A DNA stretch of 64,000 nucleotides from Candidatus Enterousia sp. (lineage in GTDB: Bacteria; Pseudomonadota; Alphaproteobacteria; Rs-D84). The stretch is taken from NCBI GenBank assembly GCA_045614145.1, contig JAZLCH010000006.1, positions 2,421-66,420 of the forward strand, read 5' to 3'. Position 1 is the stretch's first letter; every line of letters starts with the position of its first letter. Under the pieces are notes generated by a model that was given only the letters and a program-made list of their open reading frames with translations, was not told where the DNA came from and ran no database searches. Positions 2,403 to 61,290 of this stretch are shown piece by piece. Made by a program: the position numbers and the translations under genes.

Positions 2403-3572
2403 TTATACTTCGAAATTATAATTTTTAACCGAGCGAACAATCGCGTTTACCAGTTTATCTTGGTGACTGCTGGATTTTAATAATTTTTCTTCGGCAGGGT
2501 TAGACAAATGCCCCAATTCCAACAACGCGCCCGGCACAGTCGAACGCAAAACTGCAAATGGCGCATGACGGACATCAGGCCCAGGCTGCTGCGTTATCGA
2601 CGCGCGTTTGAATGATTTGGCACAACCGTTGGCGTACTCTTCACTCATTTCTGCGACGGCGTGTTGCTGCAGCGATGATAACGCCATGCGAATATTCTCT
2701 TCAAAATCCGCAAAGCCTTCAACCCCAATTTTGTCGGCTGCATTTTCTGCCTCGGCCAGTTTTTTTGCTTCTTCGTCAGACGCCTTGTCAGACAAGGTAT
2801 ATATTGAAAACCCCTTCATCTTGCGCGATGGATTTGCGTTCGCATGCAAGGATATAAATAAATCAGCCCGACGCGATTCTGCGATTTCAGCACGCTGTCC
2901 CAATTTCAGATATTGGTCGTCGCTGCGTGTTAGGTATGTTTTGAAACCATTTGAATCCAGCTTGTTTTTTAACTTTTTTGCAACAGATAAAACGACGTCT
3001 TTTTCACGGGTTCCACCCTTGCCAATGCATCCGGGATCTTTGCCCCCGTGGCCCGCATCAACAACAATAACGTATTTGCGTGATGCAGTTATAGCAGTCG
3101 TAGTGGTGGCAGATGACGTTGTATATGATTCATTTTTGATGGCCGGTGCGGCGCCCGCAACAAAATCCAGAACCAAACGATAATCATTATCCCCATTCGG
3201 CGTCAGTACCATTATTCCAGACTTTGGAATCTGAGAAATAGATTTCTTTAACGTCGCAACAATTTGCAAAGTATCACCATTTTGAACCTGGGAAATCGAT
3301 TTTATCAATCCATCAGAAGCCAAAGTGGCAGACACACCATTATTCACGCCCGTGTTCGTCAGATTTACAACCAGCTGACCCGCAGGGTATGATAAAGAAT
3401 ATGTTGGACGGTTCGCAGTTTCAATCACCAGGCGGGTCTTGTTCCCAGGCTGAACCCCAGTACGCATGGATCGCAACGTGTTACGCGCAGCAAATGCCAT
3501 GCGCGGCAATAAAAACGCCCCCGCAATGCCAAAACCAGTGATTTTTAAAACGCTGCGTCTGCTGAATTTCAT
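2403..3572 (-). CDS. amiC: N-acetylmuramoyl-L-alanine amidase (AmiC-like, Amidase_3) with a Tat signal peptide
   Basis: A twin-arginine motif, SRRSVLKITG, is present. The Amidase_3 core has VIVVDAGHGGKDPG. The ORF-track start at 3632 is probably too far upstream; MKFSRR is likelier. Confidence 0.7.
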   Translation of the reverse strand: MKFSRRSVLKITGFGIAGAFLLPRMAFAARNTLRSMRTGVQPGNKTRLVIETANRPTYSLSYPAGQLVVNLTNTGVNNGVSATLASDGLIKSISQVQNGDTLQIVATLKKSISQIPKSGIMVLTPNGDNDYRLVLDFVAGAAPAIKNESYTTSSATTTTAITASRKYVIVVDAGHGGKDPGCIGKGGTREKDVVLSVAKKLKNKLDSNGFKTYLTRSDDQYLKLGQRAEIAESRRADLFISLHANANPSRKMKGFSIYTLSDKASDEEAKKLAEAENAADKIGVEGFADFEENIRMALSSLQQHAVAEMSEEYANGCAKSFKRASITQQPGPDVRHAPFAVLRSTVPGALLELGHLSNPAEEKLLKSSSHQDKLVNAIVRSVKNYNFEV

Positions 3573-27101: not shown

Positions 27102-29180
27102 ATGACATACAACGAAATCAGAAAGGCTTTCCTGGAATACTTTGAATCCAAAGGGCACAAGATTGTGCCATCTGCATCACTAATTCCAAACGATCCAACG
27201 TTACTGTTTACGGTCGCAGGTATGGTTCCATGGAAGGGAATATTACAAGGTACGGAACCTGCGTTTGCACCACGTGTCGCAGATGTGCAAAAATGTATCC
27301 GCGCAGGTGGCAAACATAACGACCTGGAAGACGTCGGTTTCGATGGACGCCATCATACTTTTTTTGAAATGATGGGGAACTGGTCTTTTGGTGACTATTT
27401 TAAAGAGGGCGCAATTGAAATGTCTTGGGAATTATTGACCAAGGTATTTAAACTGGACCCAAATCGTATTGTCGTCACAACACACTTCAGCGATGACGAA
27501 GCGGCAAAAATATGGAAAAAGGTTGCAGGCAAGGATGCAATTCTGCTGGGAGACAAAGATAATTGGTGGTCAGCAGGCGAAACCGGTCCATGCGGTCCGT
27601 GTACAGAAATGCACTATGACATGGGGGAAAATTTACCGGGCGGCATGCCAGGCAGCGCAGATGAAGACGGCGGTCGTTGGGTTGAAATATGGAACGATGT
27701 GTTTATGCAATATGACCGTGACGCAAACGGTAATTTAACGCCACTGCCAAAGCAGAACGTTGATACCGGTGCAGGTCTGGAACGTGTTGCCGCAATTTTA
27801 CAAGGAAAAACAGATAACTATGACACAGATTTGTTTGTAAATTTGAAACACGCGGTCAGTGATATTACCGGCGTTGCAGAAACACCAGAAAATATCGCCA
27901 GCTTTAAGGTTATAACAGACCATTTGCGCAGCGTAGGCTTTGCAATTGCAGATGGTGTTTTGCCATCTAATTCAGACCGCGGGTATGTTATCCGTCGTAT
28001 TCTGCGCCGTGCAATGCGTCATGGGCAAATATTGGGACATCGTGGGGCGTTGCTGTCAAAATTATACCCTGCCCTGATTACAGAAATGGGCGATGCGTAC
28101 CCGGAATTAGCACGCGAGCAAGGACGTGTTATCGAAATCATTCAAAATGAAGAAAACGCGTTTGCGGATATGTTACAAAATGGCATGAAGTTATTGGAAA
28201 ATGAAATCCCAAAACTGAATAACAATATGTTGCCAGGCGACGTCGCATTTAAGCTGTTTGATACATACGGATTTCCATTGGATTTAACCCAAATGATTTT
28301 GCGCGACAAAAATATTGATGTTGATGTGGCGGGATTTGAACGCGCAATGACCGAACAAAAAGAACGCAGCCGTGCCAACACCAAGGGAACGCGTATATTC
28401 TGGGAATCACAAACAGAATTGACCGATACAGACGACACAGCAAAGTACGCACCAACCGACATGGAATCGCGCGTATTATCAATTCTGCGAAATGGTGAAT
28501 TTGTAGAAAACGCAACCGCAGGGGACGAGGTTGAAATCGCGCTGGACAAAACTACGTTCTATGGCACCCAAGGTGGCCAGGTTGGCGACAGTGGCGAATT
28601 AAAGCGCGGCAATGAATCCATTATGAATGTGTCTGAGGCAGCACGCGCAAACAACATCGTTATACACAAAGGAACATTGGTGGCAGATGTTAAAGTCGGG
28701 GACAATGTTCGTCCTGTGATTAATGAAAATATCCGCCAACAAACGGCACGCGCACACACCGCAACGCACCTGTTACAGGCCGCGCTGCGCAGCGTGTTAA
28801 ATGAAGATGTGGAACAACGCGGTTCTAAGGTCAGTCCGGATTCTGTTCGTTTTGACTTTTCATTCGGGCGCGCAATGACAGCCGAAGAAAAACAGGCGGT
28901 TGAAGACCTGGTAAACAAATGGATTGAAATGGACATGACCGTTCTGCATGAAGAAATGTCGATGGATGATGCTGTAAAACGTGGCGCAATGGCGCTGTTT
29001 GGCGAAAAGTATGGCGATACGGTTAAGGTTATCACCGCCGGCGACGTTTCATGCGAACTGTGTGGTGGAACACATATCAATCATACAGGCGAAATATTAA
29101 AGGCGCGGATAAACAAAGAAAAATCTATCAGCAGCGGCATCCGACGCATCACAATGTCGGTCGGAACACTGGCTGAATAA
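27102..29180 (+). CDS. alaS: Alanyl-tRNA synthetase (short form, 692 aa)
   Basis: Class II AlaS N-terminus FLEYFESKGHKIVPSASLIP, the editing-domain metal ligands HTATHLL, and CGGTHINHTGE are present. The protein ends soon after these, so the C-Ala/DHHA1 domain appears absent. Confidence 0.88.
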   Translation: MTYNEIRKAFLEYFESKGHKIVPSASLIPNDPTLLFTVAGMVPWKGILQGTEPAFAPRVADVQKCIRAGGKHNDLEDVGFDGRHHTFFEMMGNWSFGDYFKEGAIEMSWELLTKVFKLDPNRIVVTTHFSDDEAAKIWKKVAGKDAILLGDKDNWWSAGETGPCGPCTEMHYDMGENLPGGMPGSADEDGGRWVEIWNDVFMQYDRDANGNLTPLPKQNVDTGAGLERVAAILQGKTDNYDTDLFVNLKHAVSDITGVAETPENIASFKVITDHLRSVGFAIADGVLPSNSDRGYVIRRILRRAMRHGQILGHRGALLSKLYPALITEMGDAYPELAREQGRVIEIIQNEENAFADMLQNGMKLLENEIPKLNNNMLPGDVAFKLFDTYGFPLDLTQMILRDKNIDVDVAGFERAMTEQKERSRANTKGTRIFWESQTELTDTDDTAKYAPTDMESRVLSILRNGEFVENATAGDEVEIALDKTTFYGTQGGQVGDSGELKRGNESIMNVSEAARANNIVIHKGTLVADVKVGDNVRPVINENIRQQTARAHTATHLLQAALRSVLNEDVEQRGSKVSPDSVRFDFSFGRAMTAEEKQAVEDLVNKWIEMDMTVLHEEMSMDDAVKRGAMALFGEKYGDTVKVITAGDVSCELCGGTHINHTGEILKARINKEKSISSGIRRITMSVGTLAE

Positions 29181-30624: not shown

Positions 30625-31158
30625 ATGCAATATTCAATATGGAACGAAACAAAAAAACCTGTCGGGATTGTTCAATTTATACACGATTCTGATTGGCCCC
30701 AGGCACGTTACCATGACTTTATAAGATATCTGAACGCGAACAGATATATTGTGTGTGATTCTGATATAAAAAACGCACAAGATTTAACAAGTATGCCTTA
30801 CGACCTGCCGGTTTTTCTGATTGGGGTGGGACGCGGCGGTAAAATCGTACAGAAAATATCGTGCAAAAATAAAAAATATACAGGTGCAATATCTGTAATG
30901 GCACACAGGCCAATGCTAAATTTTTTTGCCGGAATTTTACACCGCCGGGACACGGCACCGCAAATACCACTGATGATTATCGGCGGATGGTCGGCATTGC
31001 GACAAATAAATGCATATTCTGCAATTAATACAAATGAAGAGTGCGATTTTAACAATATAAACTTACTAATCTATCCTGAAATTCGCCCAAACACAGCGTT
31101 CAGCATTGCAAAAAATGATATAATCGTCTTTTTAAACAAGACCCTGGGCAGATTCTGA
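30625..31158 (+). CDS. Hypothetical protein (177 aa), possibly an alpha/beta-fold hydrolase lacking a clear GxSxG
   Basis: The ORF has an RBS, ccaggag. No motif was recognised. Confidence 0.35.
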   Translation: MQYSIWNETKKPVGIVQFIHDSDWPQARYHDFIRYLNANRYIVCDSDIKNAQDLTSMPYDLPVFLIGVGRGGKIVQKISCKNKKYTGAISVMAHRPMLNFFAGILHRRDTAPQIPLMIIGGWSALRQINAYSAINTNEECDFNNINLLIYPEIRPNTAFSIAKNDIIVFLNKTLGRF

Positions 31159-31193
31159 TGTAACAATTAATTTTACACTTAATACATTTTTAT

Positions 31194-31222
31194 TTGCATT
31201 CATTTCAACTGTTTGTTAGAAT
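31194..31222 (+). promoter_or_regulatory. sigma70-like promoter TTGCAT-N17-TAGAAT driving the structured RNA/leader
   Basis: The -35 element TTGCAT is at 31194-31199 and the -10 element TAGAAT at 31217-31222 with a 17-nt spacer. The predicted TSS is about 31229. Confidence 0.5.
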
Positions 31223-31228
31223 AGCATT

Positions 31229-31407
31229 GTCGTGATAGATTATCACGGTGGGGTGTCGAAACCCGTACGAAGGCGTCCGAAGTTTGGACGAAAAACATCT
31301 CCAACCATCAGGTTGGAGGGTTGGTGGAATATATCGAATACACCACACTATTCTTTCGTATAGTTTCGAACCTCCAACCGCTGTTGATTTATCAATGCGG
31401 TTTTTTT
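31229..31407 (+). ncRNA. About 180-nt structured RNA, or attenuator leader, upstream of the secreted repeat-protein gene
   Basis: The region contains hairpins at 31231-31247, 31274-31290 and 31323-31346. Three elements form mutually exclusive pairings: ctccaacc (31299-31306), ggttggagg (31311-31319) and cctccaacc (31371-31379). The last overlaps the 5' arm of a strong terminator, aaccgc...gcggtt plus T7, at 31376-31407. Confidence 0.45.
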
Positions 31408-31514
31408 GTTATGGTGATGTGGCCAAATGACAGTCCACCGATGATTGTCGTGCGCTCTTATTCTTACACATGGTCGCATCACCACCAATATAGAAAGACG
31501 GGAGAGATTATAAA

Positions 31515-32507
31515 ATGCAGGCTGATGCGAAAAAGTTTATGATAACCATATCACTGTGCGCCATGTTGGCGGTAAATCCAGTATTGGCAACCGCACCAGA
31601 GAATGACGAAGATTTGGGCAATGTACATGAAGTGTACGTTGAGTCAAGCCTGAACAAGGCAACAAATGGTATTGCGAGTGTTGGCTATGTAAACCGTATG
31701 GTTGATGCGGCAGGTGGTGCTGCGACACGCGCCGAAGAGCATGCAGCGGCGGCGGGCGAATATGCGATTGCGGCGGGCGAGTCAGCAGACGCAGCCCAGA
31801 CAGCAGCAGGCGAGGCCAAGGAAGCATTGAGCGGTAAAGTTAATGTCGCACAGGGTGCTGGTAATAAGAACAAGGCCATGGTGACGAACGCAGATGGCAC
31901 GGTCTATCCGGGGTATATTTCTAATGATATGATATCCACTAGTACTATAAATGCCGACAGGCTGAACATTTCAGGAACTTTGAATGGCAATCCTGGTGTA
32001 CTGATGGGCGCTATTGTTACAGATACCTTTGTTGATGGTTCTGGGAACACTCATACCTCAACGGGGGTTGCGTTGAAATGGCTGGGAAGTCAGGGGCTGG
32101 GTGTGTTGGTCTCTTCTACTGGTGATTTGAAATGGCAGTCTTTGTCTGGTAATTCATTGGTGGTTACCGATGGTTCAGGAAATCTGACCACTTTATCTGG
32201 TGATGGCTATTTTCGAAGTGTACGAGATACAAGTGGAAATTTGTCGTTTGGGTTTGACGAATTGTCTTTTTATGATATTGCAGTAGAAGATAGTTTAACA
32301 GGAGATGCGGTTTTGATGCTGAAAAATGGTAAGTTCAACTATGATGTCTATAGTTATGGTGCGTATCCGAATACGGTGTTAACACGAATGCCTGATGGTA
32401 CAATTGGTTGGCAAAAGGTTAAAACGCAAAATACAGACGCCGTTATTGGTGCAGTTCCGGTTGGCAGCAAAGATTCAACAACATACGGCGCATTTTGGAT
32501 AGAGTAA
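31515..32507 (+). CDS. Secreted Gly/Ser/Thr-rich repeat protein (adhesin or tail-fibre-like)
   Basis: A signal peptide, an alanine-rich stretch and repeated SGN/TGD motifs (DGSGNLTTLSGDG, DTSGNLSFG) are present. Confidence 0.45.
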   Translation: MQADAKKFMITISLCAMLAVNPVLATAPENDEDLGNVHEVYVESSLNKATNGIASVGYVNRMVDAAGGAATRAEEHAAAAGEYAIAAGESADAAQTAAGEAKEALSGKVNVAQGAGNKNKAMVTNADGTVYPGYISNDMISTSTINADRLNISGTLNGNPGVLMGAIVTDTFVDGSGNTHTSTGVALKWLGSQGLGVLVSSTGDLKWQSLSGNSLVVTDGSGNLTTLSGDGYFRSVRDTSGNLSFGFDELSFYDIAVEDSLTGDAVLMLKNGKFNYDVYSYGAYPNTVLTRMPDGTIGWQKVKTQNTDAVIGAVPVGSKDSTTYGAFWIE

Positions 32508-32523
32508 TACTTGCCACTTTAAA

Positions 32524-32548
32524 AATCCCCCGGATGGGGGATTTTTAT
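32524..32548. terminator. Bidirectional terminator shared by the repeat-protein gene and groEL
   Basis: Hairpin aatccccc-ggat-gggggatt is flanked by an A-tract and a T-tract. Confidence 0.55.
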
Positions 32549-59753: not shown

Positions 59754-61290
59754 AATCTGATTTTCCGTCCATTTGGGCGGATTTTTTATTGAAAATCCAA
59801 GGGGTTGCGGCGGTTCGAAATCCACTCTCTATACAAAAAACAGGTTTTTGCTCAAAAAGTATATGAACAAGTCGCTTGCGCTGGTTTAAACTTCCATTTT
59901 TCCACAGAATTGCGGGATTTTTGAAGAAACTATGCCCACGTTCCATGGCGGTTCGAAATTTCTGGGTGGCCGACATTGGCAACGCATCATTCAGTTGTTG
60001 TTCCAACTTTCGCTTCTTTGCTGATGCATGGCGTAACTGTTCAGAATATACCGCAACCATATCTTGGTCATCATTTCTATTTGCATCTGCCACCAAACGA
60101 CCAAACTGAACTATATCTTGTTCCAATGTTTCTATTTCCCTTTTCCATTTTTTTCGCTGCGCCAACACTTCATCGTCCTTGGCTCTGCAAACACGCTGCA
60201 ACACCACGTCGAATAAAAGAATCACATCATCTGGGGTCTGCATGCCATTCAAACATTCCACAAAAGCATCTTCAACCAGCGCACGTTTAATTGATTTATT
60301 ACGATGAACGCACCCCTTGTTATAGCATCGGTAATATGGATGTTTATTTTTACGCCCCCTGGCAAAATATCCACTTAATGGATTACCGCAATATTCACAA
60401 CAAATTTCATTACGCAAGGGAAATTCATATGCTAAATCTGAACGATGCGGCTGTCGCTTGTGTTTGTTTAGTTTGTTTTGAACTGCCAGAAACAAGTCCT
60501 GTGGGATAATTTTATCCATTTGCCATTCCCGACGTTCGATTCCCCAACGCCCGTATGCAAATACACCAGTATAAACCTCGTTCTGTAACATATTAGAAAC
60601 CTTGGTGTCATTTAACTTATCGTTATTAAACGCCCCTGATGCACGTAAAAATTCTGTAACATCATGCTTGGTTTCTAATTCCCCAGATGCGTATTTAGCA
60701 AATGCTTGGTAAATAACACTGGCTTTCGGCTCATCACGCACCAAAATAGTGCGTTTATGTTCATTTTTTATGCGTTTAAGCCCCGATGGCGGATTTAACG
60801 GATAAAATCCCAGTGTGCATAATGCACGCATTCTGTTAGTTGTTTTTTCAGACAATTCATCACTATACATTTGTGCGCGCAACACATCAAGACCACGCAT
60901 AAATCGCCCCATGGCATTATTTTCCAATTTGCCACCGACCACCGTTTGTAATTCCAAGTCATATTTCATAATAACATTTTCAATTGCCGTGTAATAAACA
61001 CCCATATTGCGCGCCAAGCGCGACATGTCATAACACAGAATGCGAATATGTTTATGTTTGTGATTTTTTTCGATATATTCAACCATGGCGTCCAGTCCAG
61101 GGCGGTTTGTTTTCCACCCCGACACCCCGTCTTCATAAAAGAATTTATCTATTTTGAAACCATTGTTGTTTGCATAGTTTAAACACGCCTGTTTTTGTGA
61201 TGTTATTGTTTCGTTTTTCGCTTGTTTATCCGATGAAACACGACAAAGGCACAATGTTTCTATTGGCAGGTTTTTAGTTGTTTGGGACAT
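59713..61290 (-). CDS. Large serine recombinase (resolvase/integrase family); ORF C-terminus overlaps the tRNA-Glu 3' end
   Basis: The N-terminal resolvase domain has a catalytic-Ser region LCRVSSDKQ. A recombinase domain and a Cys-rich zinc-ribbon-like CEYCGNPL...YYRCYNKGCVHRNK follow. The product is 525 aa. Confidence 0.8.
   Translation of the reverse strand: MSQTTKNLPIETLCLCRVSSDKQAKNETITSQKQACLNYANNNGFKIDKFFYEDGVSGWKTNRPGLDAMVEYIEKNHKHKHIRILCYDMSRLARNMGVYYTAIENVIMKYDLELQTVVGGKLENNAMGRFMRGLDVLRAQMYSDELSEKTTNRMRALCTLGFYPLNPPSGLKRIKNEHKRTILVRDEPKASVIYQAFAKYASGELETKHDVTEFLRASGAFNNDKLNDTKVSNMLQNEVYTGVFAYGRWGIERREWQMDKIIPQDLFLAVQNKLNKHKRQPHRSDLAYEFPLRNEICCEYCGNPLSGYFARGRKNKHPYYRCYNKGCVHRNKSIKRALVEDAFVECLNGMQTPDDVILLFDVVLQRVCRAKDDEVLAQRKKWKREIETLEQDIVQFGRLVADANRNDDQDMVAVYSEQLRHASAKKRKLEQQLNDALPMSATQKFRTAMERGHSFFKNPAILWKNGSLNQRKRLVHILFEQKPVFCIESGFRTAATPWIFNKKSAQMDGKSDLAAPTGFEPVFSP
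59765..59790 (+). terminator. Terminator after tRNA-Glu
   Basis: Hairpin ccgtcc-attt-gggcgg with one G-U pair is followed by a T-tract. Confidence 0.5.

Follow-up and report, generated by a model that had tools for sequence, protein, structure and literature searches.

A multicopy leader RNA with mutually exclusive pairings, probably a transcription attenuator, in relatives of Candidatus Enterousia

The window (the whole 64,000-nt stretch of DNA that was analysed) contains a promoter-to-terminator segment directly upstream of a gene for a 330-aa protein with a signal peptide (Table 1). Upstream of the segment lie alaS, a tRNA-Met gene, a gene for an HI0933-like flavoprotein, and a 177-aa ORF without a family; the 330-aa ORF is followed by groEL-groES on the opposite strand. 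Using the flavoprotein for comparison, the nearest genomes are those of Candidatus Enterousia and other uncultured gut Alphaproteobacteria, with at most 64% amino acid identity. The alanyl-tRNA synthetase ORF (27102–29180) encodes only 692 aa and stops directly behind the second additional domain, which looks short for the enzyme and fits a reduced genome. The convergent 330-aa gene and groEL are separated by a GC-rich hairpin, TCCCCCGGATGGGGG (32526–32541), which has T/A runs on both sides and scores as a terminator on both strands.

A preliminary description of the segment proposed a sigma-70 promoter, three complementary elements (A, B and C), an intrinsic terminator and the downstream ATG at 31515, and all of its coordinates match the sequence. 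The promoter, TTGCAT-N17-TAGAAT, is also listed by a promoter scan, which reports no further promoter-like site on the plus strand up to the ATG, and transcription is predicted to start at about 31229. The terminator is not listed by a simple terminator scan because its 15-nt loop exceeds the 3–8 nt limit of the scan; RNAfold gives it as an extended hairpin free of branches, and it covaries among the copies described below (e.g. alignment columns 198:216, AU 15 and GC 10). The transcript from 31229 to 31407 (179 nt) has a minimum free energy of −71.1 kcal/mol, compared with −45.1 ± 3.9 for 200 shuffled sequences (z = −6.71), and none of the 200 folds as well. The second long hairpin, which lies beyond the terminator, has a variable loop of ~50 nt and a fold z-score of only −1.55. 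Its stem sequence is conserved in five loci of the 330-aa gene family (four besides the window) with no covariation; it appears to be specific to this gene family and could be either an RNA element or an inverted pair of DNA sites.

Table 1. Coordinates of the element, its surroundings in the window, and selected related loci
Feature	Location	Position	Strand	Description	Basis
Sigma-70-type promoter	Window	31194–31222	+	−35 TTGCAT (31194–31199), 17-nt spacer, extended −10 TGT-TAGAAT (31214–31222)	
−10 hexamer	Window	31217–31222	+	TAGAAT; TGT just before it gives the extended −10	
P0	Window	31230–31248	+	5′ hairpin, sequence free, structure conserved, loop often GNRUU	Fold and covariation
a	Window	31250–31253	+	GGGG; pairs with a′ (hairpin Ha) or with CCU of C	Covariation
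b	Window	31256–31262	+	UCGAAAC; P2 5′ strand	Covariation
a′	Window	31263–31265	+	CCG; Ha 3′ strand	Covariation
c	Window	31267–31273	+	ACGAAGG; P3 5′ strand	Covariation
P4	Window	31274–31290	+	Optional hairpin CGUCCGA-AGU-UUGGACG	Alignment
Joiner	Window	31291–31298	+	A-rich, after P4	
A	Window	31299–31306	+	CUCCAACC; anti-antiterminator strand, 5′ arm of P5	Covariation
B	Window	31311–31319	+	GGUUGGAGG; partner of A (P5) or C (antiterminator)	Three-way covariation
P6	Window	31320–31346	+	Hairpin with variable stem, loop GAAUAUAUCGAAUA	Family consensus GAAUA-N4-GAAUAA
Hd region	Window	31348–31363	+	Flanks form alternative hairpin Hd around c′: C-UAU (31348–31351), x (U31352), c′ CUUUCGU, P3 3′ strand (31353–31359), AUA-G (31360–31363)	
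b′	Window	31363–31369	+	GUUUCGA; P2 3′ strand	Covariation
C	Window	31371–31379	+	CCUCCAACC; pairs with B	Alignment
Intrinsic terminator	Window	31376–31407	+	AACCGC...GCGGUU + U7; arms aaccgc (31376–31381) and gcggtt (31397–31402), T7 (31401–31407)	Sequence, RNAfold, covariation
Second long hairpin	Window	31412–31485	+	UGGUGAUGUG...CGCAUCACCA; between terminator and ribosome-binding site	
Ribosome-binding site	Window	31500–31506	+	GGGAGAG, of the 330-aa gene	
330-aa gene	Window	31515–32507	+	Protein with signal peptide; putative target of the leader	
Tandem RNA units	L091	8686–8863, 8931–9107		Each with own promoter and terminator	
Tandem RNA units	L094	7986–8096, 8162–8333, 8418–8590		Each with own promoter and terminator	
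Phage-type neighbours	L103	7803–8792, 9956–11828			
CWC-motif proteins	L082	2004–2429		No Pfam family	
CWC-motif proteins	L089	1338–3410		No Pfam family	
CWC-motif proteins	L093	about 2605–3312		No Pfam family	

The element is one of a family of at least 31 copies in gut and rumen metagenomes, from relatives of Candidatus Enterousia (Alphaproteobacteria with genomes of <1 Mb). A homologue was identified by nhmmer in one related genome (L009), on the opposite side of the flavoprotein gene and ahead of another ORF. A DNA search pattern made of two blocks conserved between this copy and that of the window matched 22 loci in metagenomes of the human gut, the rumen and comparable sources, and a covariance model built from 21 copies was then used to find further ones; nine of the 31 copies were found independently of the DNA pattern. 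Those found with the covariance model include a tandem pair in L091, at least four full copies and a remnant within 14 kb of L094, where they lie among housekeeping genes, and one copy in an IMG/VR contig ahead of an operon of secreted proteins without assigned function. Two IMG/VR contigs, representing one region, hold a copy beside such genes. One IMG/VR locus with a copy of the RNA (L103) has a phage baseplate-hub (gpD) gene and a methyltransferase/PLD-nuclease pair a few kb upstream. The remnant in L094 is degenerate, and this locus also has an extra terminator hairpin (CCCCGC..GCGGGG-U5) between its second and third units. A weak covariance-model match in the window itself (61045–61126, minus strand) was rejected as a second copy and is a coincidence; the minus-strand ORF in which it lies (about 60980–61200) reads YEDGVSGWKTNRPGLDAMVEYIEKNHK and resembles a serine recombinase or resolvase.

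Every copy has its own sigma-70-type promoter and intrinsic terminator, with pairs of TTGACA-like and TATAAT-like sequences at equal distance in front of the other copies. The order of the parts is promoter, P0, a, b, a′, c, P4, the A-rich joiner, P5 (A paired with B), P6, CAC-UAU (d), c′, AUA (d′), b′, a single A, C and the terminator. The preliminary description did not include the long-range helices (P2 and P3), the pair of small alternative hairpins (Ha and Hd) or the multicopy status. P4 is optional, being missing from three copies and expanded in L106–L108.

The 31 homologous copies share this architecture and have abundant compensatory changes. In the family alignment (26 copies), 95.6% of cells are paired, compared with 32–53% in slid controls, and there are 174 double-change cells, compared with 50 ± 6 in shuffles. 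Double changes are present in all seven pairs of P0 (96% of cells paired) and in five pairs of P2, which is a constant 7 bp and 99.5% paired. P3 varies from 5 to 10 bp per copy and has 25 distinct sequences in the 26 copies, such that strands of different copies rarely match. The pairs of the two small hairpins also change together: columns 38:51 of Ha are GC in 21 copies, AU in six and GU in four, and columns 244:261 of Hd are UA in 19 and AU in 12, with none unpaired at either; columns 246:259 of Hd include one CG and one UG among the pairs. The P6 loop is mostly kept in the nine pattern-independent copies as a two-part GAAUA...AAUAA with a variable middle, although its first repeat is CAAAUA in L094:8162. 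The invariance of C and of the P6 loop is partly a matter of ascertainment, since both were in the DNA pattern that retrieved 22 of the copies. We note a correlation in length across copies (Spearman 0.82) between two U-rich linkers, one in front of the 5′ strand of P3 and one in front of its 3′ strand (U31266 and U31352 in the window); neither length correlates with that of P3, and no structural reason for this was found.

The central feature of the element is the complementarity of B to A as well as to C. In 30 of 30 copies examined B:C is 8–10 contiguous bp, and A:B is 5–9 bp. Most copies have the common form (A CUCCAACC, B GGUUGGAGG, C CCUCCAACC), and there are departures from it. One example is L094:8418, with a concerted substitution giving A UCCAGUC, B GGCUGGAGG and C ACUCCAGCC. 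In others there are substitutions and a 1-nt insertion in all three elements, giving A CUCCUGAUC, B GGUCAGGAGG and C CCUCCUGACC in both L106 and L107, and A CUCCUGACC, B GGUCAGGAGG and C CCUCCUGGCC in L108. Because A, B and C change in concert, B appears to pair with each of the other two, and this three-way covariation is the strongest evidence that both pairings are used. B and C vary in only six of the 31 copies, representing about two or three independent events, and concerted change is seen in copies retrieved without the DNA pattern.

The overlap of C with the 5′ arm of the terminator is constant across copies. The last four bases of C in the window, AACC (31376–31379), lie in this arm, and three of its bases form terminator stem pairs counted in the family alignment, so that formation of B:C would remove the pairs adjoining the U-tract. 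The logic of anti-antiterminator, antiterminator and terminator put forward in the preliminary description is therefore well backed, both by the concerted changes and by the presence of B:C in every copy examined.

The covariation extends to helices that belong to two different folds. In the terminator fold, P0 is followed by P2, which encloses P3 and within it P4, P5 and P6, and then by the terminator. In the antiterminator fold B:C is formed, the base of the terminator stem is lost, and Ha and Hd replace P2 and P3. Ha (GGG/CCC around b) and Hd (C-UAU/AUA-G around c′) cross P2 and P3, and a nested fold of the window RNA with B:C enforced has precisely these two hairpins where P2 and P3 would be. 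Since Ha and Hd covary and arise together with B:C, we read the family as having two global folds; the pattern of substitutions indicates that the helices of both are kept by compensatory evolution, with the record for B:C coming from few copies only.

Ha and Hd might instead be tertiary contacts that coexist with P2 and P3 in a single pseudoknotted, ligand-binding core, with only A:B and B:C being exchanged. The geometry of Ha and P2 is that of a canonical H-type pseudoknot, with a 3-bp stem, a first loop of 2–3 nt, no second loop, and a second stem of a constant 7 bp, and Ha and Hd share no nucleotides with the P2/P3 core except in the terminal C:G pairs. However, there are 0 nt between the 5′ strand of Hd and c′ in eight copies, and almost no copy has nucleotides between c′ and the 3′ strand of Hd, with P3 being 5–10 bp. 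Without a spacer around a fully paired c′ of 7–10 nt, closure of the Hd stem is sterically improbable. The linker length also does not scale with that of P3, and the outer C:G pairs in Ha and Hd could form only at the direct expense of the terminal P2 pair. We regard this arrangement as possible but rather doubtful, and favour two exclusive global folds.

The two folds differ greatly in predicted stability, with the terminator fold favoured over the nested B:C fold by 5–22 kcal/mol. In transcripts truncated before the 3′ arm of the terminator, A:B and P2 dominate the ensemble. These two observations suggest that termination is the default and that read-through needs an effector. Under the nested energy model the RNA has no way of reaching the antiterminator fold spontaneously, which counts against reading the element as an attenuator.

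The association of the element with a downstream gene is conserved. A same-strand ORF follows 28 of the 30 units with downstream DNA. In 20 copies this ORF, with a ribosome-binding site, starts 12–51 nt after the RNA, which leaves no space for a separate promoter; in the other eight it begins 104–191 nt after the RNA. The two departures are L091:8686 and L094:8162, where the next item is not an ORF but another RNA unit with its own promoter. One of these, the L094 tandem unit, has the extra terminator behind it, as would be expected of a stand-alone RNA gene and against expectation for an attenuator, and the terminated RNA may thus also have a role of its own.

An independent check used the 330-aa gene family. 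Its members were sought with the protein sequence only, and the DNA upstream of them was then inspected: the RNA is present in five of five distinct loci with upstream DNA. In the homologous loci (L106, L107, L112 and the L108 group) the start codon follows it after 104–120 nt, a spacing like that in the window, and the neighbourhoods differ, with smpB, grpE/surA, RNase J or a 1709-aa ORF nearby. The link between leader and gene that was proposed from the window alone is thus conserved both across copies and within this gene family. The protein has no Pfam or PHROG family, and a search of contigs did not find this protein itself or the window's 177-aa one. Its AlphaFold model is of low confidence (pLDDT 55) and has a signal peptide, a long helix at residues 55–106 and a beta-rich C-terminal part; the model is compatible with, and does not establish, a fibre- or adhesin-like protein.

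Genes behind other copies encode signal-peptide proteins without known domains (including the 330-aa family and a Cys-rich 'CWC' family), XRE-type HTH proteins, a protein with a weak TrbC/VirB2 match, a Listeria-Bacteroides repeat protein and a beta-flower protein. The theme is thus one of surface proteins and regulators, with no obvious metabolic theme or pathway pointing to a ligand. The cysteine-rich secreted family has a '(Y/Q/R)CWC' motif and is found downstream of leaders in several genomes, sometimes with paralogues in a row.

Leader-peptide attenuation was rejected. No leader ORF is present upstream of B in six copies including that of the window, and in the other copies none is conserved in position, length or ribosome-binding site, in agreement with the preliminary description, which had noted no obvious leader peptide.

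These findings bear on the unlikely alternative that the element encodes a stand-alone, trans-acting sRNA, in which the terminated RNA of ~180 nt is the functional product, its CCUCC segments pair with the ribosome-binding sites of mRNAs or titrate a protein, and read-through into the next gene is merely incidental. Each copy does have its own promoter, intrinsic terminator and protective 5′ hairpin, and the promoter is present even where units stand in tandem. Behind one unit there is a second terminator instead of an ORF, and A and C hold the anti-Shine-Dalgarno-like core CCUCC. Its position, however, is not independent of the gene downstream, as the counts of same-strand ORFs and their short spacing attest, and the RNA travels with one gene family, the 330-aa homologues, into different neighbourhoods. 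The three-way covariation and the terminator overlap indicate an internal switch, and since A is paired with B and most of C is also paired in the stable fold, no free seed is evident. Alphaproteobacterial anti-Shine-Dalgarno sRNAs ('cuckoo' and AbcR-type) resemble the element in host class, in having their own promoters and terminators and CCUCC segments, and occasionally in having tandem genes. They act in trans, with the CCUCC motif shown in hairpin loops, whereas the CCUCC motifs of the element have a GGAGG strand of the same RNA as their partner, and this RNA is linked to the downstream gene.

The element does not correspond to any RNA family with which we compared it. A search of the window with Rfam 15 at the gathering threshold (4227 models, including T-box, c-di-GMP-I/II, C4, 6S, tmRNA and SRP) gives only five tRNAs, and at E ≤ 10 the region 31100–31560 has a single match, a chance one to an miRNA on the other strand (E = 6.1). 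The impression that the sequence is unlike the common riboswitch classes is thus borne out, and identity with 6S, SRP, T-box, c-di-GMP or C4 RNAs was rejected. ARAGORN likewise reports five tRNAs and no tmRNA in the window. A tmRNA- or tRNA-like reading of GGGG...CCUCCA-ACC was rejected because ARAGORN and Rfam are negative and a T-arm is absent, and because the GGGG covaries instead with the adjacent CCC. A blastn search of 50,697 phage and 72,556 plasmid records has no match to the RNA, and a phage or plasmid origin was rejected on this ground. No description of this RNA was found in the literature on the organism or on the sequence motifs. On these comparisons the element represents an RNA family that has not been described before, whose members are probably devices of a known type, namely riboswitch-like terminator/antiterminator leaders.

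Several known systems share parts of this design. As in the trp, his and leu attenuators, the element is promoter-proximal with the controlled gene directly behind it, and has mutually exclusive 1:2, 2:3 and 3:4 pairings with an intrinsic terminator: 1:2 (A:B) and 3:4 (C with the 3′ arm of the terminator) terminate, and 2:3 (B:C) reads through. Unlike those attenuators, it has no leader peptide or ribosome-stalling codons, its switch is built into a scaffold of 130 nt that comprises P2, P3 and further hairpins, and it is multicopy and ahead of non-biosynthetic genes. With riboswitches that have terminator platforms it shares a structured 5′ leader domain with covarying helices, in which the terminator of the expression platform overlaps a conserved strand. 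c-di-GMP-I (GEMM) riboswitches can number many in one genome, some of them in tandem, and lie ahead of genes for pilins, adhesins and regulators. The element resembles this type in having several copies per genome, tandem units, and downstream genes for secreted or surface proteins, a VirB2-like pilin and transcription factors, but it matches no riboswitch model and each tandem unit has its own promoter. T-box leaders are also large, multi-helix leaders in which an antiterminator competes with a terminator, termination is the default and the effector stabilises the antiterminator. However, the element lacks a specifier loop, a T-box sequence and an Rfam match, its downstream genes are unrelated to amino acid supply, and there is no sign of tRNA binding.

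It is quite unlikely that the element is a constitutive one, with a leaky terminator and a stabilising 5′ structure providing fixed low expression and insulation with no regulated switching. The strongly favoured terminator fold in every copy, the heterogeneous downstream genes, and our not having found an effector are consistent with such a role. However, a fixed terminator needs no concerted complementarity of B to A and C, the covariation of hairpins exclusive to the alternative fold would be unexplained, and ~130 nt of conserved architecture is not required.

We consider it very improbable that the element is an immunity circuit of a mobile element, like those of P4 CI (seqA/seqB/seqC) and P1/P7 C4, in which a processed B-RNA would act in trans on A- and C-like sites in nascent leaders of its own or sister copies and so control termination. 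The design is similar, in that those RNAs also have a central sequence complementary to upstream and downstream leader sites that controls premature termination. Such a circuit would also fit the many copies with the same A, B and C within a genome, the XRE-type repressor-like genes behind some copies, and one locus that is 4 kb away from a phage baseplate gene, on a contig classified as viral. However, the known RNAs act after processing and lie in phage immunity regions, whereas the element is chromosomal, unprocessed as far as the sequence tells, and without a match to the Rfam C4 model or any other or to the phage and plasmid collections. In the window it lies beside housekeeping genes (alaS, groESL), and most neighbours at other loci are of this kind too (e.g. 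topoisomerase IV/gyrase subunit A, lpxI, smpB, grpE, RNase J). In the stable RNA, moreover, its B is already held by A.

The reading we prefer, and think probable, is that of a transcription attenuator that acts in cis through four switching segments, with the element as the promoter-proximal leader of the 330-aa gene. Transcription would start at the element's own promoter, and by default the terminator fold would form, with most transcripts ending at 31407 as an RNA of ~180 nt. An effector would shift nascent transcripts to the B:C fold and polymerase would read on into the gene, making this an ON switch. The effector might be a ligand (a small molecule or second messenger) that binds to the conserved core, or else a protein that binds the RNA. 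For c-di-GMP as effector, a tblastn search for GGDEF domains in ~0.43 Mb of related DNA, a weak test with approximate queries and little DNA, gave none there and matched only unrelated loci, and Hfq, CsrA and NusG had no match in the DNA of the collected related loci, which is uninformative.

The element precedes many operons for surface proteins and genes for small XRE-type regulators within the same genomes, which suggests that it may co-ordinate a regulon of surface proteins and regulators. More tentatively, and with less likelihood than attenuation itself, the family could be a riboswitch-like class whose two-fold core senses a signal, and serve as the main ON device for the secreted and surface proteins and XRE regulators of Rs-D84 as a regulon. 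In a more exotic version, the copy-specific strands of P2 and P3 displayed in the loops of Ha and Hd may be addresses for RNA–RNA contacts between copies.

For RNA biology, the family offers a clean natural case in which covariation appears to record the helices of two mutually exclusive global folds, together with three-way change of the anti-antiterminator, antiterminator and terminator strands. Candidatus Enterousia and its relatives belong to the order Rs-D84, with genomes of about 0.75–1 Mb, and are common, uncultured gut bacteria with genomes of <1 Mb and few regulators (PMC12306168). Such organisms nevertheless keep several copies of a 180-nt leader, at least four of them within 14 kb of one contig. 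Were the regulon reading true, its hosts would be these host-dependent Alphaproteobacteria with genomes of <1 Mb, Candidatus Enterousia and its relatives in Rs-D84. The location of the element before secreted, fast-evolving proteins and XRE-type regulators suggests control of the surface that is presented to host or partner cells, and the effector of this orphan switch could reveal a signal used by these reduced organisms.
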